Of a stretch of DNA of 64,000 nucleotides, positions 1-50,505 are shown one piece after another. A program made the position numbers and the translations under genes. The stretch lies in the sequence record ON075799. One strand, 5' to 3'. Below the pieces are notes generated by a model. It was given only the letters and a program-made list of their open reading frames with translations. It did no database searches and was not told where the DNA came from. The DNA comes from Escherichia phage vB_EcoM_TH18. Each line of letters starts with the position of its first letter. The stretch's first letter is position 1.

Positions 1-575
1 GCAAGTTTTGCAAAAGGTGTAAATCTTGTTAATTTTGATTTATTGGTTGGTGTAGGATCTTTTTCTACTGTAAATCCTTCCGCTATTAGTTCACGAGAGC
101 TTGTTAAAAATTCACTTATTCCTGCTTGTCCTGGGTCAACACTGAAAATTATGGTAACATCATCACCATCAAAATAAGCCTGTTTCTTAATGATAACATC
201 ACGTTCCCCAGCTTTTTTACAGAATCTCCCCTGCGTTTGAGTTGAATATCTACCATCATCAAAAAATTCAGGACAATAATCACCAGACAAATAGTAAAAG
301 CCATCATTGTCTTTACTTACCTTAACAGATGCTGTAAAGTCAGGATATCTGTTTCCAGATGTTCTTTCTGTACCTGCTTTATCATACGGACGAACAGATA
401 CAACACCGAGAGGTAAGCAGGGAACCTCTTTTAAATAAGATCTCTGGAAATAGTTTGCCCCTTCAGGTCTTGCGTTCCAGTTTCCATGCAATAACTGGGC
501 TTTTTCTACCTCTGGAAGACCTTCAAGGAATGCTAGATAATCTGGGTTATTCTCCAGCATGGGAGGATTATCGAA
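1..575 (-). CDS. terminase large subunit-like protein, 3' exon (partial, continues beyond window start)
   Basis: Minus-strand frame open from ~575 to position 1, translating DNPPMLENNPDYLAFLEGLPEVEKAQLLHGNWN...VTIIFSVDPGQAG; follows the putative intron 3' end; in-frame stop just upstream marks exon start. Confidence 0.5.
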
Positions 576-1570
576 TCCTTGTATTCAAGGTTGGACGCAA
601 CGCCAACCCCCGCACCACTACGTGCTGCTGCATGTCACCATGCAGAGTAGACTATATCACCACCCACACATAATGGGTGCTTCGCTTTTCGAACGCCATT
701 AGCTTGCGATCTACTCCCTTGCGGGATAGTCGTTGAACTACATTACCATTCATAGTTGTTTGAGATATAGATGTAAGTTTTTCTATCTTTTATTCTTCTA
801 ACAAGATTAAAACTAACACCCCATTTTTTAGATATCTTATTAATGCTTAGGATACCGTCTCTCAGATCTTCACATATCCCTATAACTTTGGATTCACTAA
901 TTCTGTTGGAAGAAGGAACCATCCTGAAATTAAACTCTTTAGAAATGTCTGGGTAGACTCTCCCAGCTTTGATACTACTAACCACAGTCTGCCCAATACC
1001 AAACATCTCACTGATATCCTTTACTCTAGCACCCTGCTCAAGTAATCTGCATATCTCAAGGGCAGTGTTATCATCAAGAGGCCTGTAACTGTTTACATAA
1101 GACTTCTTAAGCCCTATTTCATGTGCGTGATGTGTGCTTTCCTTTGCAGTTGTCCACTCAAGATTCCACGCTGCGTTATTAAGTTTGTTTCCATCTAAAT
1201 GGTTCACTTGAGTTTTTGTATCAGGGCTATCATTCTCGACAAAAGCAAAAGCAATAACCCTATGGACAAGAACTTGAAACTTTTTACCATCCTCACACAA
1301 CGTTAACATTGCATAGCCAGTTTTCTTATGGACATTAGGATGTAAAAATTTGTGGGAATACAAACTATAAATTCTTCCATCATACGTCGCACAATAATGG
1401 GAATACCCTAAAAATCCTAAATTTTTCATCTCAAACATTCTCCCTACTACAGTTTCGGAAAAGTAATTATAGCTGCTGATTGCCCTTATACAAAGGGTTT
1501 CCCAGCAATTAACGAAGTTATTCGACATGCATTACTGCATGAAGCCACTATTCTTTTAATGGTTGCGGAA
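576..1570 (-). mobile_element. putative group I intron carrying an HNH homing endonuclease ORF (boundaries approximate)
   Basis: Separates two coding segments of one ATPase gene; R-like (revcomp of gatagtcgtt ~725) and S-like (revcomp of agactatatc ~650) elements in correct order at the 3' end. Confidence 0.5.
743..1528 (-). CDS. HNH homing endonuclease (intron-encoded)
   Basis: 261 aa ORF with HNH motif HRVIAFAFVEN...VNHLDGNKLNN; sits inside the intervening sequence; start codon uncertain. Confidence 0.7.
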   Translation of the reverse strand: MSNNFVNCWETLCIRAISSYNYFSETVVGRMFEMKNLGFLGYSHYCATYDGRIYSLYSHKFLHPNVHKKTGYAMLTLCEDGKKFQVLVHRVIAFAFVENDSPDTKTQVNHLDGNKLNNAAWNLEWTTAKESTHHAHEIGLKKSYVNSYRPLDDNTALEICRLLEQGARVKDISEMFGIGQTVVSSIKAGRVYPDISKEFNFRMVPSSNRISESKVIGICEDLRDGILSINKISKKWGVSFNLVRRIKDRKTYIYISNNYEW

Positions 1571-1902
1571 ATGAAGGAAAATGAAAGCGGTTTAGGCTTT
1601 CTTTTCTCATCCTTGCCATCCCAATACTTTTCAATTAATTCTTGCTCTGAGTCACCCCAGATAAATTCTCCGTCACGTCTTATAAACCATCTAATCACCC
1701 CATCTCGTTCAGGTATAGGATATCCCTCATCGTCTAAATACCAAGAAATCAACTCCTTAATCTTATGATCTGGATCAGGGTTACAAGAGATAACCATCCT
1801 GCTCGGATATTTAGAGTTTGAACGTAGACGAGATATCAGATAATCTATCTGTGACCATGTGAATTGTGTTCCCTCATCAAAGCCGATGAAGGTATACTGC
1901 AA
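1486..1902 (-). CDS. terminase large subunit-like protein, central exon (Walker B region); ORF ends likely run into introns
   Basis: Translation FIGFDEGTQF (hhhhDE Walker B-like) ...IWGDSEQELIEKYWDG; no plausible own start; flanked by intron-like sequence. Confidence 0.5.
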   Translation of the reverse strand: MQYTFIGFDEGTQFTWSQIDYLISRLRSNSKYPSRMVISCNPDPDHKIKELISWYLDDEGYPIPERDGVIRWFIRRDGEFIWGDSEQELIEKYWDGKDEKRKPKPLSFSFISATIKRIVASCSNACRITSLIAGKPFV

Positions 1903-1904
1903 CT

Positions 1905-2160
1905 TATTGTCCCCTCAGTTCGCTACACTGAGGCGGTGTGCCAAGACACCCGCCACATGTTTCCATGTGGAACAGACTATATCTTCCATCCTTGGCGTGC
2001 CGTTTGGATCACCAATCGCTTGTGATTCTACTCTCCTACACTCATCGGAGATAGTCGTTACACCCAGATTTTATATTTCCATATTCTGTGGCACGGTATT
2101 TTCCCATAGGGAGTTCCACCGTTATAGGCACGAAGGGCAAGCTATTCACCCTGATGATCT
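1905..2160 (-). mobile_element. putative small group I intron, no ORF (boundaries approximate)
   Basis: ~250 nt non-coding insert between exons; same R-like (gatagtcgtt ~2052) and S-like (agactatatc ~1975) motifs as the other three intervening sequences. Confidence 0.45.
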
Positions 2161-3512
2161 AATTTGTTATTCTCATACTCCATGTGTCTCCACAACACCT
2201 TTGCCCCAGATGGGAAAATTGCTTCCAGAGCTTTCTCCCTGAACTTCGGCTTCCATTCCTTATCGAGTTGCAAATAAATACTTTTTGCTGTATCAAAAAG
2301 CCCACCTGCACCTGTCAATTGAGGTGTTGTCCTACGAAACATTATACATGCTGTCTGCGGGTCATCGACATAAGCAAGCGGCATCAATTGTAGGAGATAT
2401 GATTTTCCACTATTCCCAGTGACAACCACACAATCTTCTAGTCTGGTAACAAAGAAACCTGTTTGTGTTACAAAGCAGTATTTAAACCCATCCGTAGGTA
2501 TAAACTCTTTAAACTCAGCTTTTCTGTCTTTATTAGCCAGTGACCTTAATCCTTTTCCTCTAGCCATAATATTAACAGTATAACTGTCCTTTCCACTTCT
2601 TGTATCATGGTTTATGGTGGTATTATAACCAAGAGAAGATCCTACAAACTGAACAAAATCAGCGTTCATCTTATGGACAGTAAAATATCTACCTGTAAAG
2701 CTGTTATGTGTTTTACCGCCATATGGCTTACAAAAAGAACCATCCCAATGAAAAATCTCATCAAGTATTATCTCCAGTTGTTCATTTGAACACTGATAGT
2801 ATTTCTCTGTAAATTTTTTATCAGGATATTTAGGCCATACAATAACCTCGTACTGTTCCCCAGTGGTATATCTTTCACTGGGTTTTGATCCTCTATCTTC
2901 ATATCTTAATCCAAACTTTTTACAAAGTTCGATTAAGCGGTCATATTTACGCTTTTTAGCAAAGCGCATCTGTGTATAATTATCTTTCCCTTCTTTAACA
3001 ACTCTCCCATCAGCCATGACAGCAACCTGAAGCCGTAATTCCCCTTCTGTCATGTCTATCCCAGGACCATCATAGTTAAATGTAGTTATGAACTTACCTG
3101 TCCAACCTTTTTTAACAGAGTTGTTATGTCTTTCTGCCACTTCAGAAAAAGAAAGTGTTCTTGGCTGTGATTTATAGTCTGGTTTATAAATCACAGTATG
3201 TTCGTCAGATAGCTCTTGACAAATGCCATTACCTTCTATTCTTGTAAGTTTTTCGCAAGGGAGTTTAACAAACTCTAAAGGGGGGATAAATTTAGCCTCC
3301 CCAGTGGCTTTGTCATATTGCAGAATGTCCTGCCCTGACCATTCTGATATCTTAATCCAGCCAGATGGTGTCAACACCTCGTGGTCTTTAGACAAACACC
3401 CGGCGGCCCCACCAATTATTAGAATTTGGGCTTTACTCTCCAAAATCATTTTTTGCTTAGGACTGGCAGGTCCAAATACTTTACTCAAAAGACCTCCATA
3501 TTTTCTATTCAT
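2142..3512 (-). CDS. terminase large subunit-like protein, 5' exon, with in-frame intein
   Basis: N-terminus ...ILIIGGAAG then intein then SGKSYLLQLM: extein junction reconstitutes a GGAAGSGKS P-loop (Walker A). Confidence 0.6.
   Translation of the reverse strand: MNRKYGGLLSKVFGPASPKQKMILESKAQILIIGGAAGCLSKDHEVLTPSGWIKISEWSGQDILQYDKATGEAKFIPPLEFVKLPCEKLTRIEGNGICQELSDEHTVIYKPDYKSQPRTLSFSEVAERHNNSVKKGWTGKFITTFNYDGPGIDMTEGELRLQVAVMADGRVVKEGKDNYTQMRFAKKRKYDRLIELCKKFGLRYEDRGSKPSERYTTGEQYEVIVWPKYPDKKFTEKYYQCSNEQLEIILDEIFHWDGSFCKPYGGKTHNSFTGRYFTVHKMNADFVQFVGSSLGYNTTINHDTRSGKDSYTVNIMARGKGLRSLANKDRKAEFKEFIPTDGFKYCFVTQTGFFVTRLEDCVVVTGNSGKSYLLQLMPLAYVDDPQTACIMFRRTTPQLTGAGGLFDTAKSIYLQLDKEWKPKFREKALEAIFPSGAKVLWRHMEYENNKLDHQGE
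2412..3398 (-). mobile_element. putative intein with LAGLIDADG-type endonuclease domain (residues ~39-367)
   Basis: Begins CLSKDHEVLTP (block A-like), contains LQVAVMADGR and LEIILDEIFHWDGSF, ends ...VVVTGN before Ser+1; interrupts the P-loop. Confidence 0.6.
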
Positions 3513-5899: not shown

Positions 5900-5975
5900 T
5901 GGTGTGACGGACAGGATTCGAACCTGTGACCACCTAGTCTTCAGCAAGGCACTCTACCAACTGAGTTACCGTCAC
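5900..5975 (-). tRNA. tRNA-Phe (anticodon GAA)
   Basis: Manual cloverleaf: acceptor GTGACGG/CCGTCAC, D arm ACTC/GAGT, anticodon loop CTGAAGA, T loop TTCGAAT, encoded CCA. Confidence 0.8.
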
Positions 5976-5980
5976 ATAAT

Positions 5981-6057
5981 TGGTGGGCGATGAGGGACTC
6001 GAACCCCCAAAATTCAGGTTCTAAGCCTGACATGTATACCAATTCCATCAATCGCCC
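5981..6057 (-). tRNA. tRNA with anticodon UAG (Leu-reading) but short variable arm
   Basis: Acceptor GGGCGAT/ATCGCCC, anticodon arm TCAGG-CTTAGAA-CCTGA, T arm GGGGG-TTCGAGT-CCCTC, CCA encoded; D stem has one mismatch. Confidence 0.55.
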
Positions 6058-6071
6058 ATCTATATTAACAG

Positions 6072-6263
6072 TTATGGTTTTCCACGATACACAGAAATAG
6101 TTTTCCCATTAGCATTGATAACATAAGCGGTCTGATCCTCAGACAAAAACACTTTTTGATCAATGCCGGAAATAGCTATAGACTTTTGATGAGCACAATA
6201 CCCAACAATTTTCCCACAAAAAATTTGTTCATCATTTGGAGAGACGACTTTAACTGTTAACAT
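6072..6263 (-). CDS. small hypothetical protein (63 aa) inside the tRNA cluster
   Basis: Start refined to MLTVKVV with RBS agagga 6 nt upstream; the longer ORF-track start would overlap tRNA-Pro. Confidence 0.45.
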   Translation of the reverse strand: MLTVKVVSPNDEQIFCGKIVGYCAHQKSIAISGIDQKVFLSEDQTAYVINANGKTISVYRGKP

Positions 6264-6305
6264 GGTATCCTCTGTACATTTCTGCTTTGATATGTTTATG
6301 TTTGT

Positions 6306-6383
6306 TGGTCTGTCCGGTTGGATTTGAACCAACGACCTGGTCATCCCAAGTGACCCGCGCTACCCAAGCTGCGCTACGGACAG
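6306..6383 (-). tRNA. tRNA-Pro (anticodon UGG)
   Basis: Perfect cloverleaf: acceptor CTGTCCG/CGGACAG, D arm GCGC/GCGC, anticodon arm GGTCA-CTTGGGA-TGACC, T loop TTCAAAT, CCA encoded. Confidence 0.85.
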
Positions 6384-6467
6384 AGAAATGTAGATTTTAA
6401 TTGTCCCAGAATCTACTAACTGGTATCGCTGGCTAGGTGATATCTGTGACTTGATTAAGTCAAGAAT

Positions 6468-6559
6468 TGGCGGTTCCTGAAGGATTCGAACCTTCGGTGG
6501 GGAGATTCATTCCCAACGGCTTAACAGGCCGTCACCATCGACCACTCGGTCAAAGAACC
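6468..6559 (-). tRNA. type II (long variable arm) tRNA with anticodon GUU; identity uncertain
   Basis: 92 nt; acceptor GGTTCTT/AGGAACC (one G-U), anticodon arm ACGGC-CTGTTAA-GCCGT, ~20 nt variable arm, T arm GAAGG-TTCGAAT-CCTTC, CCA encoded. Confidence 0.55.
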
Positions 6560-6568
6560 TGAATATTT

Positions 6569-6645
6569 TGGTGGATCTGGTTGGGGTCGAACCAACAATC
6601 TCTCGATTAAAAGTCGAGTGACTTAAACCATTTGGCTACAAATCC
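6569..6645 (-). tRNA. tRNA-Lys (anticodon UUU), weak D arm
   Basis: Acceptor GGATTTG/CAGATCC, anticodon arm CTCGA-CTTTTAA-TCGAG, T arm GTTGG-TTCGACC-CCAAC, CCA encoded; D stem poorly paired. Confidence 0.55.
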
Positions 6646-6663
6646 GTTAAATTATCTTTAAAA

Positions 6664-6691
6664 TAGCTAATTACTCGCACATAATTAGCTA
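6664..6691 (-). terminator. hairpin plus U-run (terminator-like) within tRNA cluster
   Basis: Inverted repeat tagctaatt...aattagcta followed on the minus strand by TTTTAAAGA. Confidence 0.3.
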
Positions 6692-6878
6692 TACGCAACA
6701 ACTCTCCAAGGAGAGCACACTAATGATCGATTACGATTATATGACTAAATTTAGACCATCATAAGTGTTTGGCTTACGCCAGTAAAGAGCGGACTGCTCT
6801 GGGGTATCGGTAAGATGGTTGCAGCCATCTACCGAAAAATCACACCAAGCAACTAAACAAGCTACATTAAAGATAACT

Positions 6879-6967
6879 TGGAGGAGGCTGACAGAATCGA
6901 ACTGTCACCATATCTCTACAGCGGGACTGGGTTCAAACCAGCTTGTGCACCATGCACCCCAGCCTCC
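6879..6967 (-). tRNA. tRNA-Ser (anticodon UGA), type II
   Basis: 89 nt; acceptor GGAGGCT/AGCCTCC, anticodon arm GCTGG-TTTGAAC-CCAGT, long variable arm, T arm GACAG-TTCGATT-CTGTC, CCA encoded. Confidence 0.7.
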
Positions 6968-7038
6968 AAAGATAGCCTCTGCCGAGGATATACACCCAAC
7001 AAAGGAGGCGCTCAGGTCAGAAGAAATCTGAGCCTTAA

Positions 7039-7132
7039 TGGAGGAAGATGCCAGACTTGAACTGGCACACCCATTTCTGGGTTACTATCTCCTTAGCAGG
7101 GAGATCCCTTACCAAATTAGGGTTAATCTTCC
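7039..7132 (-). tRNA. tRNA-Ser (anticodon GCU), type II
   Basis: 94 nt; acceptor GGAAGAT/ATCTTCC, 3-bp D stem, anticodon arm TCTCC-CTGCTAA-GGAGA, T arm GCCAG-TTCAAGT-CTGGC, CCA encoded. Confidence 0.75.
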
Positions 7133-7153
7133 AATACCTTAGTAATTAAAAAC

Positions 7154-7243
7154 TGGTGGAGAAGGAGAGAATCGAACTCTCAAGCCGTTTTACCAGTCAG
7201 CACATTTCCAATGTGCTTTCGTCGCCAATCGATTTGCTTCTCC
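7154..7243 (-). tRNA. tRNA-Ser (anticodon GGA), type II
   Basis: 90 nt; acceptor GGAGAAG/CTTCTCC, anticodon arm GCACA-TTGGAAA-TGTGC, long variable arm, T arm GAGAG-TTCGATT-CTCTC, CCA encoded. Confidence 0.65.
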
Positions 7244-7252
7244 GTTTTAACT

Positions 7253-7328
7253 TGGCAGGGGATGGTTGATTCGAACAACCGATCACGGGGTCAAAGCCCG
7301 TTGCATTAGGCCACTATGCTAATCCCCT
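7253..7328 (-). tRNA. tRNA-Gln (anticodon UUG)
   Basis: Perfect cloverleaf: acceptor AGGGGAT/ATCCCCT, D arm GCAT/ATGC, anticodon arm ACGGG-CTTTGAC-CCCGT, T loop TTCGAAT, CCA encoded. Confidence 0.85.
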
Positions 7329-7333
7329 TTTGC

Positions 7334-7410
7334 ACGAGAGTGAGGAATAGAACCTCTTAGTCACTGGTTTTGGAGGCCAGCCTTCACCCAGTGAAGTTAC
7401 GCTACTCTCA
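7334..7410 (-). tRNA. non-canonical tRNA-like element
   Basis: Good acceptor (TGAGAGT/ACTCTCG) and T-loop-like GGTTCTATTCC, but D and anticodon regions do not fold into standard arms; no encoded CCA. Confidence 0.3.
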
Positions 7411-7417
7411 TTAAAAA

Positions 7418-7975
7418 CTATTTTCGAAAAGGACTTATGAAAAATGCCAACATCACTCTCTCTCTTGAAAAAGCTCTGTCTTCAGGAACCACACTCTTCA
7501 GTTTCCAACCGACATAAATTCGCCAGTAAAATTGTTTTCCAAACAATCTAAAAGACGGGACAAACGCGAATACACCCCACGCATTGTCATTCCACATCAA
7601 CAAATAGCCTTGTTGGTTATCCTCCACATCAGAGCTTACATGGAGGTTTCCTTTCCACTTTGTCACAGATGTGATTTCACGTCCAAGTACGTGATAGGAG
7701 AAATTGTAGGCTTTATTTCTCCACAACCAAGCAACTCGTTGTAGGTAAACACCAAAACTTCCTATTTTACGGACTTCTTCCCATCTCTCTATGTGTCCTC
7801 TATCACCGTCTATAGGATTATCATATGTCTCCATCCACCTGAAAATATAAGGCAGATGCCCTGTCTTCTCATTATAGAACGGAACAACAAAAGGAGCCAG
7901 AATAACACAGAGAACCGACATAACTGGGTCAAGAGGTGCTAACAGGATCCACGATAAATATTTTAAGTATCTCAT
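7418..7975 (-). CDS. hypothetical protein (185 aa, hydrophobic N-terminus)
   Basis: ORF from six-frame track; start overlaps stop of upstream gene (ATGA). Confidence 0.5.
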   Translation of the reverse strand: MRYLKYLSWILLAPLDPVMSVLCVILAPFVVPFYNEKTGHLPYIFRWMETYDNPIDGDRGHIERWEEVRKIGSFGVYLQRVAWLWRNKAYNFSYHVLGREITSVTKWKGNLHVSSDVEDNQQGYLLMWNDNAWGVFAFVPSFRLFGKQFYWRIYVGWKLKSVVPEDRAFSRERVMLAFFISPFRK

Positions 7976-8202
7976 GCAGGATCAAGCCTAGATATAATGT
8001 ACTGGTTTAAATCTGAATATGGGAAGATACTTTCAAAGATAACCTGTTTAAATCTGAAGCCGCACAAACCGAAAAGTACCTTCTGACACTCACCAAAAGA
8101 GCAATCTTTACCAACTTTTATCACAACCGTATCGGCAATCTGCACACTTTCTATCTCTTTAGATTCATGATGCCGTACTATGATTACTTTAGAAACCATC
8201 AT
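7972..8202 (-). CDS. hypothetical protein (76 aa)
   Basis: ORF from six-frame track; translationally coupled to downstream gene. Confidence 0.45.
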   Translation of the reverse strand: MMVSKVIIVRHHESKEIESVQIADTVVIKVGKDCSFGECQKVLFGLCGFRFKQVIFESIFPYSDLNQYIISRLDPA

Positions 8203-8327
8203 ACTCGTCCATATTAAAGCCTTCTACTAAAGATAGTAGATGTCTAGGGTTGGACCGCAAACGCAACCCCATGGAATTTGTTACGGTCTTCAGTTGACCC
8301 AAGCGGATTTCATTGACATCTTTTAAC

Positions 8328-8402
8328 TGGAGCATCCAGAGGGTATCGAACCCTCGACTTCAGCTTGGAAGGCTGTAGTTTTCCCAATTAAACTATGGAT
8401 GC
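8328..8402 (-). tRNA. tRNA-Gly (anticodon UCC)
   Basis: Acceptor GCATCCA/TGGATGC, D arm GTTT/AAAC, anticodon arm (A)CAGC-CTTCCAA-GCTG, T arm GAGGG-TTCGATA-CCCTC, CCA encoded. Confidence 0.75.
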
Positions 8403-8407
8403 ATATT

Positions 8408-8483
8408 TGGTGGGAGTGGTAGGCTCTGCCCCTACGTCCTCTCGATTATCGGTCGAGCGATCTACTAACTGATCTACACTCCC
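8408..8483 (-). tRNA. tRNA-like cloverleaf with Ile-type anticodon GAU but non-canonical D and T loops and C at position 33
   Basis: All four stems perfectly paired, CCA encoded, but D loop AGTTAGTA lacks GG, T loop is GGCAGAG (no TTC), anticodon loop is CCGATAA. Confidence 0.5.
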
Positions 8484-8546
8484 AAACTGTACTGGCCCAA
8501 CAACCACGATTGGAGGGTATCGTCACACATCAAAGCCAGTACAGTT
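8484..8546. other. long perfect hairpin (13-bp stem, ~37-nt loop) between two tRNA genes
   Basis: aaactgtactggc (8484-8496) and gccagtacagttt (8534-8546) are exact reverse complements. Confidence 0.6.
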
Positions 8547-8551
8547 TTAGT

Positions 8552-8641
8552 TGGTGTGCCGTGATAGAGTCGAACTACCCGAGTCCCTTTCGAGACAGGA
8601 GATTTACAGTCTCCCCCGCTACCCCTACGGTCTAACGACAC
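8552..8641 (-). tRNA. tRNA-Tyr (anticodon GUA), type II
   Basis: 90 nt; acceptor GTGTCGT/ACGGCAC (one G-U), anticodon arm GGAGA-CTGTAAA-TCTCC, long variable arm, T loop TTCGACT, CCA encoded. Confidence 0.7.
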
Positions 8642-8642
8642 A

Positions 8643-8990
8643 TTAACCTTGTTTGAATTGAACAATATCCGTCGAGAACGGTTTAGCTGCCTTAATAGGT
8701 GCTTTTTCTGAGTTATCTTTTTCGAGTAACTCTTCGTTTTCCTCATCAAAGTAATCAGAAAGCATCTGCTCACCTTTCTCAATAACATAACGAGCTATAT
8801 TTTCTCTGATATTGTCTTTTGTATTCACATTCTTCATCAAATCCCTAAGAACCTGATGAGCTTCAGGAATCATTGCAATCAGATTCGTTTTTAAATCTAG
8901 GATATTTTTCTCTAACTGAATTGCATTAGATTCCTCTTTCAGAGGACGACCTTTTCCTCTTCTACGTTTTGTAAGCTGCTTAGTAGCCAT
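8643..8990 (-). CDS. hypothetical protein (116 aa, basic N-terminus)
   Basis: Start refined to MATKQLTKRRRGKG; the longer ORF-track N-terminus overlaps the tRNA cluster; sigma70-like promoter just upstream. Confidence 0.5.
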   Translation of the reverse strand: MATKQLTKRRRGKGRPLKEESNAIQLEKNILDLKTNLIAMIPEAHQVLRDLMKNVNTKDNIRENIARYVIEKGEQMLSDYFDEENEELLEKDNSEKAPIKAAKPFSTDIVQFKQG

Positions 8991-9009
8991 TTTAAAACCC
9001 CACTTAATG

Positions 9010-9039
9010 ATATTATCAAATAAAAACATATCTGTCAAG
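9010..9039 (-). promoter_or_regulatory. sigma70-like promoter (TTGACA, 18-nt spacer, TAATAT)
   Basis: Minus strand reads TTGACA...TAATAT shortly upstream of the ATG at 8990. Confidence 0.5.
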
Positions 9040-9075
9040 TGGTATTTTAACATATTTACCAAGAAATTGAAAGTT

Positions 9076-9152
9076 TGGAGCACGGTGTCGGACTTGAACC
9101 GACATATATCTGTTTTGCAGACAGATCCGTAACCAAATTCCAGCAACCGTGC
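9076..9152 (-). tRNA. tRNA-Cys (anticodon GCA)
   Basis: Acceptor GCACGGT/ACCGTGC, anticodon arm TCTGT-CTGCAAA-ACAGA, T arm GTCGG-TTCAAGT-CCGAC, CCA encoded; D stem weak. Confidence 0.65.
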
Positions 9153-9228
9153 AATAAGTACCCCAGGTAGAGAACCTATAGAGTGGGTCTTACGAGCCGC
9201 GCTGACGATTCTCAAGTTGGGGTTAATC

Positions 9229-9305
9229 TGGTCGAGGAGACAGGATTCGAACCTGTGACCTACGGCTTAGAAGGCCGCTGCTCTATCCAACTGAGCTACA
9301 CCCCG
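9229..9305 (-). tRNA. tRNA-Arg (anticodon UCU)
   Basis: D arm GCTC-AGTTGGATA-GAGC, anticodon arm GCGGC-CTTCTAA-GCCGT, T arm ACAGG-TTCGAAT-CCTGT, CCA encoded; acceptor has one mismatch. Confidence 0.7.
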
Positions 9306-9505
9306 AAAATAAGAATGCTTTATAGTGTATGGTTACTCAACCTCACTCCAACTTCCACAGTTGGTGCTCTACGAGCATGACTACGTTTGAAATCAACGTT
9401 GCGCACCGATAGCTTTCTCACGCATTGTATGCCTCATTCCCAACAAATGCTGATCAGACATTTATATCGAATAATATAAGCTAATACACTATAAAACAAA
9501 CTTGT

Positions 9506-9602
9506 GGCTGGGTGATGGAATCGAACCACCTATGTATTCAACGGCTTCCCCGTCTATTTTCAGGATTATAAATCCTCGCCCTTGCCAAAGGGCTTACCCA
9601 GC
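9506..9602 (-). tRNA. over-long (97 nt) tRNA-like element, anticodon arm ambiguous
   Basis: Perfect acceptor (GCTGGGT/ACCCAGC), D arm GCCC-TTTGGCAA-GGGC, T arm GGTGG-TTCGATT-CCATC; central region has only a 4-bp stem with loop TTTATAA and ~30 extra nt; no encoded CCA. Confidence 0.35.
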
Positions 9603-9604
9603 AT

Positions 9605-9679
9605 TGGTGCTCGCAGCAGGTTTCGAACCTGCAACCCCCTGCTTACAAGGCAGGTGCTCTACCGTTGAGCTATACGAGC
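9605..9679 (-). tRNA. tRNA-Thr (anticodon UGU)
   Basis: Acceptor GCTCGTA/TGCGAGC, D arm GCTC/GAGC, anticodon arm CCTGC-CTTGTAA-GCAGG, T arm GCAGG-TTCGAAA-CCTGC, CCA encoded. Confidence 0.85.
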
Positions 9680-10044
9680 AATAAGACATTGCTTCCGATT
9701 AACAGCCTTGAGGCTTTACAGACCATATCTTGTGAGCCATAACCTGTGCCAAGGATTTCAGATGATAAACGAAATTTTATCTTTCAAGAGTCAACTTTCA
9801 AGTTTCATCTTTTACATTTAACCATTGACCTTTATTGTATGAACTTTTACTTAGTGGAAACAACAAGGCATCTTCGTGTGCCTCGCTGCATCTATGTCCT
9901 GTATTATCCTCATACATATACGATACATGGTGGGGGATATTTAACCTCCAACCCCCAGGAGGCAAGATGATGTAAACTTCGTTAATCAAAAGCAATGTTT
10001 TAAATTTCAAAACAAAGGAACGATAATGATATTATCAGAGCCTT

Positions 10045-10692
10045 TTAGAGAGAGTGCTCAATCTCAATTTCTGTCTTAGCGTTTGACTCAGACAACGCAA
10101 AATCAACGTTAGACAAGAAATCTTCAATCTCTTCTTCAAGAGAACGAATCTTAGAAGCCAGTTCAAGAGGATCCACAACCGATGGTGTGTTCATCATTCG
10201 AATAGGAGCTTCCACAGTCTTAATCTGCTCTGCATCTGGCGCTTTATCACGTTGGATATATGGCGCTCTTGCATTTTCAAGTTTATCTTCCAGAGATTTT
10301 TCTTCTTTTGCCAGAAGAAGCTGTGCAGAAGCACGCTGTGCACAAAGTTTGTTTAACAACTCTTGTTTAAAGCAAATCGTCCGTTTGCGTTCGATTGCCT
10401 CAGCAACTGTCATAGACACATTACCAATTTTGACAATTGTCTCAGCATTAGACTTAACAATTTTTGCTTTCAGTTCATCACGCACTGCCAAGAGGTCTTG
10501 CAGACTTTGATAGTCGTTGATCGCAGATTTCTTAAAATCATCAACAGAGCCGATATAACCCGGAATCTTACAATTATTCTCAGTTCCTTTTGCAATCTTA
10601 ATACAATCAAGATTGTAGATACGCTTATTGATCTTATCTTCAATTTTAGAGATAGAAGCAAGTGCACGAGTTACGGAAATCTTAGTAGACAT
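10045..10692 (-). CDS. hypothetical protein (215 aa, charged coiled-coil-like)
   Basis: ORF from six-frame track; charged, heptad-like composition. Confidence 0.55.
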   Translation of the reverse strand: MSTKISVTRALASISKIEDKINKRIYNLDCIKIAKGTENNCKIPGYIGSVDDFKKSAINDYQSLQDLLAVRDELKAKIVKSNAETIVKIGNVSMTVAEAIERKRTICFKQELLNKLCAQRASAQLLLAKEEKSLEDKLENARAPYIQRDKAPDAEQIKTVEAPIRMMNTPSVVDPLELASKIRSLEEEIEDFLSNVDFALSESNAKTEIEIEHSL

Positions 10693-10765
10693 GCGATCTC
10701 TCCTATGTAAATCAGCTTTGATAAAGTAACTATCCAGAAAAACAAAAACTATGTCAAGAAAAATT

Positions 10766-10957
10766 TTAATCTTTTACAGCATCTTTTATAGAATCACAAA
10801 GATCTTGAACAACATCAGATGTCGGTGACAAAATCATCTCGTCGGCTGCTGCTATAGCATCTGATGCTAAATCAACAAACGGAGTTGTTACCGCAGAAGT
10901 CACTTCAACAGCCGTTATTGTTACTTCGCTTGCAATCTTAAGCAAAGATCCTATCAT
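10766..10957 (-). CDS. hypothetical small acidic protein (63 aa)
   Basis: ORF from six-frame track in an otherwise gene-free gap. Confidence 0.4.
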   Translation of the reverse strand: MIGSLLKIASEVTITAVEVTSAVTTPFVDLASDAIAAADEMILSPTSDVVQDLCDSIKDAVKD

Positions 10958-11033
10958 AATCTCAACCCTCCTGAATATCCGTGATTCCCTTTATTTAACG
11001 ACGCTGGCTCACGGTGGCACTCTCGTCAATAAA

Positions 11034-11357
11034 CTATTTTTTAGTTTTCTTACCGTTTTCTACAGAAATGCTTGTTTTCTGTTTCGCTTCTCGTTCGCGC
11101 TTTGTTTTCCCAGTGCGAATACGATATGAAGCAGAAATAACTTCACCACCAATGACACGAGACACAGATTCGTAATACATTTCAGTATTACCGTCTTCAT
11201 CTTTGCGTTTTTTCAGAACTGCTACAGTTTGCGTTTTACCACCAAGGCGCACATCGTGCGGTGCAGAATGTGTCTGCGTGGATTTTGATCCAAACTGAAA
11301 AGGTTGCTTTATCGCCTCGATAGCTGACACCTTTTTAGCAGACTGTTTCTTAGCCAT
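11034..11357 (-). CDS. hypothetical basic protein (107 aa)
   Basis: Start refined to MAKKQSAKK with strong RBS ggagga upstream; lysine/arginine-rich. Confidence 0.55.
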   Translation of the reverse strand: MAKKQSAKKVSAIEAIKQPFQFGSKSTQTHSAPHDVRLGGKTQTVAVLKKRKDEDGNTEMYYESVSRVIGGEVISASYRIRTGKTKREREAKQKTSISVENGKKTKK

Positions 11358-11408
11358 TAAGTTTTCTCCTCCGAAAACAATAAACATAGTTTATTTCGTG
11401 TGCCACAT

Positions 11409-11485
11409 TTGGTGGCCCCTGCTGGACTTGAACCAGCGACCAAGCGATTATGAGTCACCTGCTCTATCCAACTGAGCTAAGGGGC
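11409..11485 (-). tRNA. tRNA-Met (anticodon CAU; initiator/elongator/Ile2 not distinguished)
   Basis: Acceptor GGCCCCT/AGGGGCC, D arm GCTC-AGTTGGATA-GAGC, anticodon loop CTCATAA, T arm GCTGG-TTCAAGT-CCAGC, CCA encoded. Confidence 0.8.
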
Positions 11486-11818
11486 CGAATCTCTTAATAT
11501 GAGATGATATTATCCTGTATGATCTACATTGTCAAGAGATATTTTAAAATTTTATACATCCCAGTTTTCTTCTTGATAACAACCTTCCCCGAATCCAACT
11601 TCTTTTTCAAAATCAATACCTTTTTTCATACATTCCTCACATTAACAGATATTGTTTTCAAACTCAAAACGTAAAATACGAACTCTGTCAATACACTGCT
11701 GTAATCTACAAAGCAACAACTCAACTTGTTTATGCGTCTCTTCAGTATACGTTTTGGTCATCTTGCTTTTCTCCGTGATCTTTTCATTGCAGCTTCTGCA
11801 CGTCTTTGTTTACGATTT

Positions 11819-45906: not shown

Positions 45907-46024
45907 TATCAGCCATTACCTGAAACAATTCCTCTTCGGTAATTTTTCTTTTCTTGCGTTTTCCACTGCGCAGCGCCAGCGCAAGCTCTTTTTCATATGC
46001 TTTTCGTAGAGTTTTCTTACTCAT
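45878..46024 (-). CDS. possible small basic protein (48 aa), not in ORF track
   Basis: ATG directly after nrdG stop with RBS aggaga; MSKKTLRKAYEKELALALRSGKRKKRK... Confidence 0.35.
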   Translation of the reverse strand: MSKKTLRKAYEKELALALRSGKRKKRKITEEELFQVMADNAARATRRG

Positions 46025-46498
46025 TTAAATCTCCTCTTTCCACAAACCATCTTTTTTAACCCACATTTTTTGGTTATCAGAACCCCTGAACCTTTTGGTT
46101 GTAGGCTTAGACATATCATACTTACCATCTATAACAATGTCAACAAGATTTTTAATACTTTCAGGTATTTCTTCAAATAAATATCCTGTCCACAGCCAAA
46201 TGTCTTTATCATCTCCGTAAACTGACCGTACCTTTAAAATAATCTTTATAACACCATCAATATTTTGTGGATCAAGTGGTTCCCCACCTAAAATTGAGAG
46301 TCCTTTTATTTGCTTACGTGCCAAATCCTTTATAATTCTATCTAAGTGTTCGTCTGTAAACATTTCACCATAGCTATATGACCAAGCTCTTTGGTTAAAG
46401 CATCCGCGACAACAATGACCACATCCGCTAACCCAGAGGGAGCATCGCACTCCCTCCCCGTTGATCATATCTGTTGGTTCATAACCGCAGAAATTCAT
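46025..46498 (-). CDS. nrdG: anaerobic ribonucleotide reductase activating protein
   Basis: Cys cluster SGCGHCCRGCFN typical of the NrdG glycyl-radical activase; adjacent to nrdD. Confidence 0.85.
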   Translation of the reverse strand: MNFCGYEPTDMINGEGVRCSLWVSGCGHCCRGCFNQRAWSYSYGEMFTDEHLDRIIKDLARKQIKGLSILGGEPLDPQNIDGVIKIILKVRSVYGDDKDIWLWTGYLFEEIPESIKNLVDIVIDGKYDMSKPTTKRFRGSDNQKMWVKKDGLWKEEI

Positions 46499-46875
46499 GT
46501 ATGTTTCACTCTCTCTACAACTTCTTGCATCTTACCCTTGTTATAAGGACGGCTGTTTGGAGCAGACAAATATCCAGACACACGTCTAATCACACTTATT
46601 GTTTCTTCATCATGATTGCCACAAGAAGGGCACTCGAATCCCTTAGCTGTGGCCTTGAACTCACCAGAGAAACCACACTCGTAACATCTATCTACAGGCT
46701 GATTTATACCAAAATAAGGGATGTGTTCATATCCATAATCCACTAAGGCTTCCAACGCTTGCATGTTGTTTCTTAGATTAGGAACTTCCACATAACCTAT
46801 GTTACCACCATTGCTTATCTCAGCAAACCCACATTCATAATCCCATTTGGAGAATGGATCAGACGTTTTCCACAC
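46495..46875 (-). CDS. nrdD: anaerobic ribonucleotide reductase NrdD, 3' exon (glycyl-radical and zinc-ribbon region)
   Basis: CYECGFSGEF...CPSCGNHD zinc ribbon and RRVSGYL glycyl-radical motif. Confidence 0.75.
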   Translation of the reverse strand: MWKTSDPFSKWDYECGFAEISNGGNIGYVEVPNLRNNMQALEALVDYGYEHIPYFGINQPVDRCYECGFSGEFKATAKGFECPSCGNHDEETISVIRRVSGYLSAPNSRPYNKGKMQEVVERVKHT

Positions 46876-46879
46876 TGGT

Positions 46880-47240
46880 TGATGAAACGAGTTTGTCAGA
46901 TAATCTCTTTCGATTAATCCTGGGTATGCTTCTTTAAGTTTTGTGGCAAATTTATAACACAGAGATTCTGCCGATGTACCGCTGCTTTCGCAGTATTTTC
47001 ACGGACTAGACTATATCACGATCTTGTGACCACTCACAAGACCCTCCACATTTCGCCATTCAAGGCTACTCTACTCGCTTCTTCACATCAGGTGAAGCTG
47101 ATGCTATGCTTTCGATAGTCGTTAGAGACAATCTCTTGCCTACGGGGTTAGCTCTGCCCCAACAGGGTTTAGCCTTTCTTACCAGCTTATTGTTTATTCA
47201 GCTATGCCCGTTTAGTGGAGTTATTCGACAACCATCACTG
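46880..47240 (-). mobile_element. putative group I intron in nrdD (no ORF; boundaries approximate)
   Basis: ~360 nt non-coding insert between nrdD segments; R-like gatagtcgtt (~47120) and S-like agactatatc (~47003) elements. Confidence 0.5.
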
Positions 47241-47753
47241 GTTGAAGGCCCAATTGTGTTTAGGCGTGCCATATAGGCTAAATGCTAAACCACTTCGCTC
47301 TTTAAAATCAGCACAAATATCCTTCATATATTTCAAGATATTCATTGCCATCTCTTTACGAACTGGTTCGCCATACAAAATTTCAACTGCTTCATAAAGA
47401 CCCACATAGCCAATACTGATTGATGCGTAGCCATTAAAGAAGAGTTTACTAATCTTTTCATCAGGTCCGAGCCGTGCAATAGCCCCCTCCATAAACATTG
47501 TGGGATTCTGGGATGCTTTTACATCCATCAATCTACCGACTCTAACCATGTGCGCTTTATACGCCATTTCCATGTGCTTTTCAAGCAATTCGGTAAACAG
47601 AGTTTTCTTAGATTTTGCTTCTGCTGCAATCATAGGTAAGTTTAGAGAGACAACACCAAGATTGAATCTACCATCATATTTCTCACCATGTTCTGTTGCA
47701 TAATAAGATAAGAAACTTCTACACATTATGTTCGAAGTGGTTCGCAAGGCCAC
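47235..47753 (-). CDS. nrdD: anaerobic ribonucleotide reductase NrdD, central exon (ORF ends extend into introns)
   Basis: In-frame segment between two intron-like inserts, assigned to nrdD by position; true exon limits likely ~47245-47725. Confidence 0.6.
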   Translation of the reverse strand: MALRTTSNIMCRSFLSYYATEHGEKYDGRFNLGVVSLNLPMIAAEAKSKKTLFTELLEKHMEMAYKAHMVRVGRLMDVKASQNPTMFMEGAIARLGPDEKISKLFFNGYASISIGYVGLYEAVEILYGEPVRKEMAMNILKYMKDICADFKERSGLAFSLYGTPKHNWAFNQ

Positions 47754-47985
47754 TCCCGCACCACTACGTGCTGCTGCATGTCACCATGCAGACCAGACCA
47801 TATCTTCATGCTTAAAGCATGTCTGCCGTTTGGGGTGTCATCAGCTTACACTCTACATCCCTACATTCATCAGGATTGGTCGTTAGGCATTTACGGTTGA
47901 TACCGATTTAGCACGGGATTCCCTCCATAGAGGATTCCCCCGTTTAGGCAGATTTTACATGAGCAGTTATAGTTTACCCATGCTT
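47726..47985 (-). mobile_element. putative group I intron in nrdD (no ORF; boundaries approximate)
   Basis: Non-coding insert with a 38-nt block (47755-47792) identical to one in the terminase intron (609-646); S-like agaccatatc and R-like ggtcgtta elements. Confidence 0.5.
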
Positions 47986-49142
47986 GTAACACGCCCGTCT
48001 GAAGAACCTGTTACCTTTTTATTCAACGGTACAGATATGAAATCTGGATAAATCCTTTCAACACAACACTCCATGGCTAATTGCTTTAAGTCGTAGTTGG
48101 GATCGCCAGGTTTCATGTTTACACCATCTTCCAAGAAGAAGATAACTTTTGGAAAAACAGGTGTGACTTTGTCTTTGCCAAGTCCGTTTTTGTGAACAAG
48201 AAGATAATTCTTTGTAATCATTCTCCCAAAATAGGAAGTATCAAGCCCAAGACTCAAGGTGATAAATGGGCATTGACCGTTAGCACTCATCAAGGTATTT
48301 ACCTGATAAAGCAATGTCTGCATAGCATCGTAAACATCTTTTTCCGTCATCTGCATAGCTACACCTTCTGGGTCTGGCAGCCATTGCTCCTGACAAAATT
48401 TTAGATTTTTATCGTAACTTGCCTTGGCATATTGTTTTAATCCTTCATCAATATGGGTGTATGACTGACCACCATATTGAACCGAAGAAACTGATTGGGA
48501 TATCTGGCTAAGAATGGTACAGGCAACACCTATCGATTTCGGCTTTTCTATTTTTGCATTGCCAATTTTAAAACCGTTCTCCAACATATCCCTATAATTT
48601 ACAAGACTGCAATTAGTTAATGGGCTTATCAAATAATCTAAGTCATGTATATGACCATAACCATTTGTATGCCATTCAGCCAATTCTTTTGGTAGAATTT
48701 GAGTTAGTGAGACGTGCTTGCTAAGGATACCCGCGAGAAGATCACGATGGCTACTAACCACCCCACTTGGTTTATTAGCGTTTTCTTTAGTAAATTCATC
48801 GGCAGTTTGTTCTAAGAATCCCGTAATATCTGCAAACAGTTTTCCTTTACCTTCCCTAACGTTATCACGCGTTTTACGATATTCAATATACGCCCGTGCA
48901 GCGTTCTTGAGGTCAAGATCCATTAGTGAATCTTCCACAATGCGGTGAATATCACAAACAGCCACTTTCTCTTGCGGTGGTTCTGATTTTTCCAGAGTTT
49001 CATAGGCTTGCTCGCCAACTGCACACGCCAGAGGATATGATTTCTCACCATAACCAGCAGCAATTAAAGCGGCTTCTGCCGCTTTAATAACTTTCACACC
49101 ATCATAATCTTCTTCACGCCCATCACGTTTAACAACTTTCAT
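47967..49142 (-). CDS. nrdD: anaerobic ribonucleotide reductase NrdD, 5' exon (N-terminal region)
   Basis: N-terminus MKVVKRDGREEDYDGVKVIKAAEAA (ATP-cone-like); ORF 3' end likely runs a few codons into the intron. Confidence 0.75.
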   Translation of the reverse strand: MKVVKRDGREEDYDGVKVIKAAEAALIAAGYGEKSYPLACAVGEQAYETLEKSEPPQEKVAVCDIHRIVEDSLMDLDLKNAARAYIEYRKTRDNVREGKGKLFADITGFLEQTADEFTKENANKPSGVVSSHRDLLAGILSKHVSLTQILPKELAEWHTNGYGHIHDLDYLISPLTNCSLVNYRDMLENGFKIGNAKIEKPKSIGVACTILSQISQSVSSVQYGGQSYTHIDEGLKQYAKASYDKNLKFCQEQWLPDPEGVAMQMTEKDVYDAMQTLLYQVNTLMSANGQCPFITLSLGLDTSYFGRMITKNYLLVHKNGLGKDKVTPVFPKVIFFLEDGVNMKPGDPNYDLKQLAMECCVERIYPDFISVPLNKKVTGSSDGRVTSMGKL

Positions 49143-49145
49143 TGT

Positions 49146-49415
49146 TTATTCCCCCAGTTCAGTATTAATAAACGCAATAAATTCATCTGCCGTGCCAACA
49201 TATACAGTATCGACACCGCACTCATAAAAAATCCGTGGGACTGTTTTTGGGATAACAGGAGAGCATTTTAAGACCAATTCCTCTTTGGTGAAATCTTCTC
49301 CTAATTTCTTATAGATAAAGTTAAGTCCTTTTTGTTTTGCAAACTCTTTTGCTCTTACACAATGAGGGCAATTATCTTTCCCATAAATTACAAACGTGCA
49401 TTCTTTAAAGTTCAT
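49146..49415 (-). CDS. glutaredoxin/thioredoxin-like redoxin
   Basis: Start refined to MNFKECTFVIYGKDNCPHC (CxxC active site); next to nrdB. Confidence 0.7.
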   Translation of the reverse strand: MNFKECTFVIYGKDNCPHCVRAKEFAKQKGLNFIYKKLGEDFTKEELVLKCSPVIPKTVPRIFYECGVDTVYVGTADEFIAFINTELGE

Positions 49416-49416
49416 C

Positions 49417-50505
49417 TTAAAAATCCCAGATTTCTTCTTCTGCATCATTCACCGTTGTGTTAACACGATAGTCTGTGTTGGACATTTCTTGGTTAGCCGT
49501 CTGCTGCAATGCAGGATTCATCCATACTTGCATTAACGGTAAAGGGTCTTTGGAAGGAGGGTTGAAGTCCCTATCAAATCCAAAATGGTCATAGATAGGA
49601 GCACAATTATAATCAACCCACTCTTTCAGCAATGATTCGTTAAGGCCAATGATTGCCCTACCATCACTGAAGATATAGTGACTCCAACTATACTCTTTAA
49701 ATCTAACTTCGTCAAGAATTTCTTTCAATTCATGTTTGATGGCATTAAAGCTGTTCAACCATACAGGATCTTCTAACAGAATTTCAATAATTGCAAAGTC
49801 GTTTTTTGTATGGAGAATCTCATCAAGCATTATTTTTTGCACAAGCTGTGCAACTTGAACAAAAATCCCCTGTTCCGCTAGAGCAAATGTGCACGCAAAA
49901 CTGGATATGAACTCTATGGCCTCTAGGCCAAGCAGAGCAAACATAGCTCTCAGAATACCTCTACGGATATCTTCTTTATCTATAGAAGCAGGATCCAGTC
50001 TGTATTTAGCACCAAGAACTTCTAGTTCACGCATATATTTGACAATGACACCAGATCTGTTTAAAACTTCTTGGTTGTTTTGTACTTCTTCAATAATTTC
50101 TCGTGCATTTGGCAAACACTGTCTGACAATTTCTGAGTATGTCAAAGCATGAAGCACTTCGATTTCTGCCTGTTTCATCATCAAAGCGTATAATTCACTG
50201 TTTGTGATGAATGGGGCAAATAAACAGATAATTGATTGCGCTGCAACACTATCAGCTTCCCATTGCCACATCAAAGTTTGCACCATAACATCATAGGTTG
50301 ATTTACTGCATGTAGCAAAATCTGAAATTGATTGTACTAAATCAACTTCGTCTTCTGACCAGTCTTGCTCTTTTTGTTTTTTATACAAATCGAAAAGTTT
50401 TGGGTATTTTTTATTAATGGAGTCATACATCCCCATCTGCTGACCAAGAAACAGAGGGTAATCCCCAGTTTTATGTGCTGTGTTTTCTGTATTGAATAAT
50501 GCCAT
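49417..50505 (-). CDS. nrdB: ribonucleotide reductase small subunit (class I beta)
   Basis: 362 aa; assigned by overall resemblance to the R2 family and position directly downstream of nrdA. Confidence 0.85.
   Translation of the reverse strand: MALFNTENTAHKTGDYPLFLGQQMGMYDSINKKYPKLFDLYKKQKEQDWSEDEVDLVQSISDFATCSKSTYDVMVQTLMWQWEADSVAAQSIICLFAPFITNSELYALMMKQAEIEVLHALTYSEIVRQCLPNAREIIEEVQNNQEVLNRSGVIVKYMRELEVLGAKYRLDPASIDKEDIRRGILRAMFALLGLEAIEFISSFACTFALAEQGIFVQVAQLVQKIMLDEILHTKNDFAIIEILLEDPVWLNSFNAIKHELKEILDEVRFKEYSWSHYIFSDGRAIIGLNESLLKEWVDYNCAPIYDHFGFDRDFNPPSKDPLPLMQVWMNPALQQTANQEMSNTDYRVNTTVNDAEEEIWDF

Follow-up and report, generated by a model that had tools for sequence, protein, structure and literature searches.

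The nrdD gene of Escherichia phage vB_EcoM_TH18 (sequence record ON075799), which lies on the minus strand of the 64,000-nucleotide (nt) stretch analyzed here (hereafter the window), encodes a class III ribonucleotide reductase (RNR). Judged from sequence, it is very probably one gene that carries two group I introns of subgroup IA, both devoid of an open reading frame (ORF) and belonging to separate lineages. A preliminary description of the same DNA had proposed three nrdD segments at 47967-49142, 47235-47753, and 46495-46875, and ORFs are present on the minus strand at exactly these coordinates. They match consecutive positions of the Pfam NRDD family (1-263, together with an ATP-cone; 263-415; and 415-562, together with Gly_radical) and are therefore adjacent pieces of one NrdD rather than chance or unrelated fragments. 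Alignment to a contiguous homolog, the NrdD of Salmonella phage KE22, likewise places the segments side by side with no gap at the junctions, as had been anticipated, and the gene divides as follows:

47976..49142, minus strand: nrdD exon 1 (1167 nt, 389 codons), ATP-cone and N-terminal half of the barrel; Pfam ATP-cone and NRDD 1-263, junction from the gap-free KE22 alignment.
47724..47975, minus strand: predicted intron 1 (252 nt), ORF-less group I (IA); 79.8 bits with Rfam model RF00028, homology to the T4 and phi92 introns, exon context.
47262..47723, minus strand: nrdD exon 2 (462 nt, 154 codons); Pfam NRDD 263-415, alignments to T4 and KE22 NrdD.
46972..47261, minus strand: predicted intron 2 (290 nt), ORF-less group I (IA) of Herelleviridae type; leave-one-out model R1 (described below), hand-derived structure, covariation.
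46495..46971, minus strand: nrdD exon 3 (477 nt including the stop, 158 codons plus stop); Pfam NRDD 415-562 and Gly_radical.

Because the preliminary description had used ORF limits, its exon boundaries (correctly 49142..47976, 47723..47262, and 46971..46495) and its insert sizes of about 260 and 360 nt needed revision; the actual inserts are 252 and 290 nt long. Exon 1 ends in AGC ATG GGT (S-M-G), exon 2 runs from TGT AGA AGT (C-R-S-F-L, with the finger-loop Cys) to GGC ACG CCT (G-T-P), and exon 3 begins with GCA GAA TCT (A-E-S-L-C-Y) and holds the glycyl-radical loop RRVSGYL and a Cys4 zinc ribbon. The junctions were fixed by the uninterrupted KE22 protein, which reads VTGSSDGKVTSMGCRSFLSHY and FSLYGTPAESLCYRF at these places, and the ligated junctions are predicted as AGCATGGGT/TGTAGAAGT (junction 1) and GGCACGCCT/GCAGAATCT (junction 2), a slash here and below marking a splice junction or insertion point. 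The joined coding sequence (CDS) of 2106 nt yields a 701-amino acid (aa) NrdD that aligns with KE22 NrdD over its full length at 79% identity, with no gap at residues 389/390 or 543/544 and its sole gaps far from both junctions. The RF00028 alignment, which misplaced P1 of intron 1 into exon 1, would instead put junction 1 at 48002/48001 and 47774/47773; this candidate is in frame but leaves nine residues too many relative to T4 NrdD. Given this surplus and the KE22 alignment, we reset the limits by protein alignment and adopted 47976/47975 and 47724/47723, with which the joined product also aligns end to end with T4 NrdD. Junction 2 sits within the conserved TPAE motif (TP/AE), and junction 1 immediately precedes the Cys aligned with T4 C290, the conserved finger-loop cysteine with which catalysis begins. 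The exons contain no frameshift or stop, and the catalytic motifs (TNC, MGC, RRVSGYL, and the Cys4 ribbon) are intact in the joined product; reading on past the 5′ splice site, an in-frame stop is met 2 codons into intron 1 and 8 codons into intron 2. How the finger-loop Cys and a nearby Met function in general has been described (PMC4493059).

That the inserts are two ORF-less group I introns, as the preliminary description had supposed, is borne out by covariance models for both, by covariation for the second, and by the frame restored on their removal. Subgroup IA is distinguished in the classification of Michel and Westhof by extra P7.1/P7.2 helices between P7 and P3′. Intron 2 has these helices, intron 1 has an insertion at the corresponding place, and the T4 homolog of intron 1 is annotated as group IA. 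Intron 1 matches RF00028 over the full model length with 79.8 bits (E=1.2e-18), exceeding the gathering score of 50. In its P1, exon CAUGGGU (47982-47976) and the guide GCUCAUG (47964-47958) pair in 7/7 positions, with a U.G at the splice site, and its terminal G is at 47724. The Rfam alignment displays P3, P4-P6, P8, and P9, with P7 formed by GACCA/UGGUC, and a 47-nt insertion occupies the place where P7.1/P7.2 occur in subgroup IA. A P6a hairpin at 47905-47894 marks the site at which relatives of this intron carry an HNH ORF. The R/S-like motif proposed for this insert is found as the S element GATATGGTC at 47804-47796. In neither insert does the ORF list contain a sense-strand ORF of homing-endonuclease size.

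The structure of intron 2 was written by hand, and its helices hold in four homologs. P1, in which exon GCCU (47265-47262) pairs with GGGC (47251-47248), changes in step with the differing exon contexts of relatives (CCCU/GGGG, ACGGU/GCCGU). It is followed by a P2 of six base pairs with a GUGA loop (47244-47229), a P3 of CUCCAC/GUGGAG, a P4-P5 three-way domain, and P6. P7 (GACUA/UAGUC) is invariant across the four homologs, P7.1 (UCG...CAUCAG/CUGAUG...CGA) and P7.2 (GCC/GGC) show compensatory changes in relatives, P8 has 10 base pairs, and P9 carries a GAAA-capped hairpin; the intron ends in a G at 46972. Within the P3-to-P7′ core, at 47223-47008, lies GATATAGTC (47017-47009), of which exact copies stand at 650-658 and 1975-1983 in the terminase inserts of the same window, in agreement with the R/S-like motif that the preliminary description considered common to both genes. 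We built a leave-one-out model of this core (R1, 233 positions) from three introns of Gram-positive (Herelleviridae) phages with intron 2 excluded, and the whole of it (positions 1-233 of 233) matches 47223..47008 with 128.4 bits (E=5.5e-33). Scores of 78-157 bits are obtained for other family members, as against 17-46 bits for T4-type introns, intron 1 among them. In a model-guided four-sequence alignment that includes the P3/P7 pseudoknot pairing, 93.1% of cells are standard pairs versus 32-43% with partners slid, both sides change in 21 of the 48 pairs, and none of 500 shuffles reaches any observed measure. A MAFFT alignment of the relatives misregistered the P6, P7.1, and P7.2 hairpins and was replaced by the model-guided one, and Moonbeam and iF6 were left out of the 3′ helices, since in these an ORF breaks the core after P7.1.

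Both introns have the conserved group I core (P3-P6, P7-P8, the P3/P7 pseudoknot, and R/S-type sequences) and the splice-site hallmarks of the group, a U.G pair in P1 and a terminal G, and precise excision restores the reading frame. Sequence thus gives strong backing to the identity and limits of both introns, and we infer a conventional course of events in vivo. The nrdD pre-mRNA would fold each intron into a P3-P9 catalytic core, exogenous guanosine would attack after the U of the P1 U.G pair (...CAUGGGU/ and ...GCCU/), the freed 5′ exon would attack after the terminal G of the intron, and the ligated message would encode the complete 701-aa NrdD. Indirect support for such splicing comes from the "spliced variant" annotated in phi92 and from reverse transcription PCR on introns of a related phage of the Vequintavirinae (PMC7344957).

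Several points weigh against this reading. The GenBank record of the identical phage 18-1-2 breaks the nrdD region up into three CDSs, each labeled "class III RNR large subunit," and annotates no intron there, and the splicing of both inserts is deduced from their sequence. The P1 of intron 2 consists of only 4 contiguous base pairs, and no convincing P10 was found by eye for either intron. The covariation test comprises four sequences whose alignment was fitted to the model. Finally, intron 2 falls short of the RF00028 gathering threshold and matches nothing in Rfam, whether the whole window is scanned or, at E<=10, 2.8 kb or 316 nt of it. The expectation that group I covariance models would recognize the inserts thus held for intron 1 with RF00028, and for intron 2 failed with Rfam and succeeded with leave-one-out R1. 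When six relatives of intron 2 were compared with RF00028, that of phiEF24C alone matched, at 36.6 bits, which is below gathering; the Rfam miss suggests that a single model has limited sensitivity toward introns of this subfamily and need not count against the fold.

Some of the same points could be taken to mean that nrdD is a decaying pseudogene, its inserts being junk or relics unable to splice any longer, since both introns are without a homing endonuclease, the GenBank record shows three fragments, and intron 2, unmatched in Rfam, has a short P1. We regard this as highly improbable. The exons are free of frameshifts and stops and keep every catalytic motif, all core helices are kept and show compensatory changes relative to their relatives, and three independently deposited phage records are identical here; moreover, the downstream gene nrdG, whose ATG overlaps the nrdD stop codon (ATGA), is translationally coupled to it. 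NrdD might also be translated as two or three polypeptides that come together afterwards, with no RNA splicing, like the NrdA of Aeromonas phage Aeh1, which is split by mobE. There is precedent for such an arrangement (PMC3653736, PMC7344957), and GTG and ATG codons lie near the starts of the annotated fragments. However, the GTG at 47753 falls within the 3′ tail of intron 1 and the GTG at 46875 is 96 nt into exon 3, so that starts of this kind would lose conserved residues, and it is implausible that the chain should break at the finger-loop Cys, in the middle of the barrel. In addition, the inserts form bona fide ribozyme folds, unlike intergenic spacers with an endonuclease gene, and separate polypeptides strike us as extremely improbable.

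The probability that the inserts are elements of another kind, whether inteins, group II introns, or small transposons (miniature inverted-repeat transposable elements or insertion sequences), is close to nil. A possible intein in the terminase gene of the same window, seen by eye and without a Pfam match, would be in its favor, but the in-frame stops near the start of each nrdD insert are incompatible with inteins, neither a group II nor any other Rfam family matches the ORF-less inserts, and terminal inverted repeats and target duplications are both absent, the exon sequence being exactly continuous. Guanosine-dependent removal of both introns to give a single NrdD remains the conventional and best explanation, by which splicing would join all three exons.

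Around nrdD (window 46000-49500), three phage records share the sequence at 100% identity: Escherichia phage 18-1-2 (OK136181.1; Avunavirus, Vequintavirinae) and its sister records 19-1-2 and 24-2-1. After the identical records, the closest NrdD proteins share only about 77% identity. On the minus strand, nrdA and nrdB come first, then the glutaredoxin-like gene, nrdD, and nrdG; the neighbors nearest to nrdD have the following positions:

46025..46498, minus strand: nrdG, activating radical-SAM enzyme; Pfam Fer4_12 and Radical_SAM.
49146..49448, minus strand: glutaredoxin-like gene directly upstream of nrdD; Pfam Glutaredoxin and the GenBank annotation of the identical record.
49417-50505, minus strand: nrdB, farther upstream than the glutaredoxin-like gene; GenBank annotation of the identical record.

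The terminase large-subunit (TerL) gene of the window (1-3512, minus strand) is also heavily interrupted. It contains sub-threshold RF00028 matches at 1953-2203 (34 bits), 628-819 (32 bits), and 1361-1568 (21 bits), and two of its parts can be assigned:

1489-1902, minus strand: middle TerL exon piece; Terminase_6N match.
746-1528, minus strand: HNH_3 endonuclease ORF inside a terminase insert.

The N-terminal terminase ORF (2145-3512) reads ...GGAAG/CLSKDHEV...VVVTGN/SGKSY..., which by eye looks like an intein within the Walker A motif; a Pfam search of this ORF for the suspected intein gave no match. Elsewhere in the window, 13 tRNA genes are clustered at 5903-11486 on the minus strand. Among the records returned by our searches, many of those labeled "Campylobacter phage" (MG065635-MG065690) behave in every search as rV5-like or phi92-like coliphage genomes, and their host labels look doubtful.

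The chief value of these results lies in annotation. The public records of the identical phage (OK136181.1, OK181860.1, and OK181862.1) list nrdD as three or four separate, intron-free CDSs, which is to say as "NrdD" fragments, and the single group I model of Rfam misses intron 2 entirely; for these reasons, automated pipelines will keep mis-calling genes of this kind. Interrupted genes of nucleotide metabolism are well known in phages, and only the details here are new.

Among those details is the position of intron 1 relative to its best-known relative, the intron of T4 nrdD (sunY), which scores 105 bits with RF00028. The two reside in the same host gene, their cores are 76.7% identical over intron 1 positions 12-203, their guides (GCUCAUG) are identical, and their 3′ ends are similar. 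The T4 intron differs in that it lies inside codon Y180 (GCT TAT GAG T/AT GAA), the counterpart of window residue Y278, at 2187/2188 of the compared T4 sequence, whereas intron 1 is found at G389/C390 (T4 G289/C290), about 110 codons downstream. It also differs in size and content, being 1033 nt long with an ORF for I-TevII (GIY-YIG) in its 3′ part. Intron 1 hence shares neither the nrdD site nor the I-TevII ORF of the T4 family, though the RNA homology is clear, and it has a T4-nrdD-type core. The exon targets of the two introns are UAUGAGU in T4 and CAUGGGU here; positions able to pair 7/7 with GCUCAUG number one in T4 nrdD and three in the present gene, and in each case the intron occupies one of them.

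Closer relatives occupy the site of intron 1 itself. The intron of the phi92 gp192A "spliced variant" is 78% identical over its full length (the phi92 copy being 279 nt), and the introns of phiWec187, JEP1, and navn, which are phi92-like and rV5-like phages, are about 770 nt long, with an HNH ORF in place of P6a (intron 1 positions 70-83), so that endonuclease-bearing forms of intron 1 exist at the same nrdD site, the present copy being the endonuclease-free form. These copies are 78-89% identical to intron 1, and all copies at the site share the exon context AGCATGGGT/AAACTATAACTGCTCATG...AACATAATG/TGTAGAAGT. None of the four phages has a second intron at residues 543/544. In the rV5-like JEP1 and navn, the homolog of intron 1 at 389/390 is preceded by an insertion at 289/290, eleven codons downstream of the T4 site (about 1662-2458 in JEP1 and about 1662-1918 in navn, in the compared sequences), which has a weak RF00028 match (30 bits, navn) and, in JEP1, a 178-aa ORF; this insertion is a third intron lineage in nrdD. 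Of the best 60 tblastn matches, no fewer than seven further records, JEP1, navn, phita32, and 241Ecol014PP included, have an nrdD in three pieces, and the remark in the preliminary description that two introns would be unusual was accordingly overstated (see also PMC3653736).

Phage nrdD genes are thus interrupted at no fewer than four sites (window numbering): Y278 (T4), 289/290 (JEP1 and navn), 389/390 (the present phage, phi92, phiWec187, JEP1, and navn), and 543/544, the TP/AE site added here. Among the sequences searched, both the occupation of this last site and its use by a Herelleviridae-type intron in a coliphage appear specific to the present lineage. Three gut viral contigs in IMG/VR have a distant nrdD (35-40% identity in exon 3) with group I-like R1 matches at about 813-960, where the upstream finger-loop site is expected; wide use of the finger-loop site in nrdD is suggested. 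No intron-2-like element is present in the IMG/VR relatives of exon 3, and an IMG/VR scan with an intron-2-specific 20-mer gave zero matches, exact patterns being prone to miss diverged copies. A metagenome scan with the exon 2/intron 2 junction, subject to the same limit, gave 34 matches, none of them an intron by R1, and these we attribute to chance.

The relatives of intron 2 lie in a different group of phages. By BLAST, its full length is found only in the three identical records, and its 5′ half resembles, at 68-79% identity, inserts that interrupt the genes for terminase, DNA polymerase, and other products in Herelleviridae infecting Bacillus, Enterococcus, Staphylococcus, Listeria, Lactobacillus, and Brochothrix. 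These comprise the terminase introns of phiEF24C, Stau2, iF6, and Moonbeam (the Moonbeam member being annotated as a group I intron), the DNA-polymerase introns of SPO1-like and Enterococcus phages, and an intron of Bacillus phage LY2. Shared with intron 2 are a P2 with a GNRA loop, a UAAACGGGCAUAGC-type P4-P5, P7.1/P7.2, P8, and P9, collinear throughout, and four ORF-less members (intron 2, phiEF24C TerL, Stau2 TerL, and LY2) are collinear end to end. Intron 2 differs from the rest in its setting, an E. coli phage, and in its host gene, nrdD, and it thereby places a Herelleviridae-type intron in a Gram-negative phage.

Both introns also bear patches of nearer likeness to other introns. Positions 139-196 of intron 2 (P7-P7.1; 47066-47123) share 98% identity with the HNH-containing intron in the DNA-polymerase gene of coliphage Av-05 and 84% with its counterpart in rV5-like phages; the Av-05-type intron has a P4-P6 domain of a different type and is otherwise unrelated to intron 2. 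Over positions 172-233 (P7′-P9; 47744-47805), intron 1 shows 90% identity with the 3′ end of a terminase intron (596-658) located in the same window. Such mosaic patches suggest patchwise recombination among co-resident introns. Since neither intron has an endonuclease gene, they would be either remnants of mobile forms or passengers spread via recombination of the flanking exons. As to the route of arrival, we speculate, while considering the scenario as a whole rather unlikely, that the two introns together record ectopic, endonuclease-independent movement. The T4-type core may have come to occupy two nrdD sites with its guide kept, and intron 2 may be a cross-phylum import from Gram-positive phages into an nrdD site not used before, one that was later patched by recombination with a resident DNA-polymerase intron. 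Transposition guided by reverse splicing would be expected to leave the T4-type core at another nrdD site with its guide the same and few 7/7 targets available, as is seen, and the patching of intron 2 is proposed because its P7.1 module is 98% identical to that of the DNA-polymerase intron. Whatever their route, the two introns provide useful data points on the spread of endonuclease-free group I introns.

Within phages, interrupted genes like this nrdD have ample company. In the Vequintavirinae, the introns of TerL, DNA polymerase (two), nrdA, and nrdB of phage CB7 splice by reverse transcription PCR (PMC7344957), and terminase introns of rV5, with a three-segment TerL containing a homing endonuclease, have been described (PMC3606486). 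Split RNR genes are classic in phages, with nrdD the one split most often, and those with multiple introns carry independent introns at highly conserved, functionally critical codons (PMC3653736). Several group I introns in one RNR gene are found in Twort nrdE (two introns), Brochothrix A9 nrdE (three introns and an intein), and SPbeta bnrdE/F; these are class Ib genes of Gram-positive phages, whereas the present case is a class III nrdD of a coliphage. The addition of two introns of separate lineages, one abutting the finger-loop Cys and the other within TPAE, leaves unchanged the established picture in which phage RNR genes are hot spots where self-splicing elements occupy the most conserved codons.

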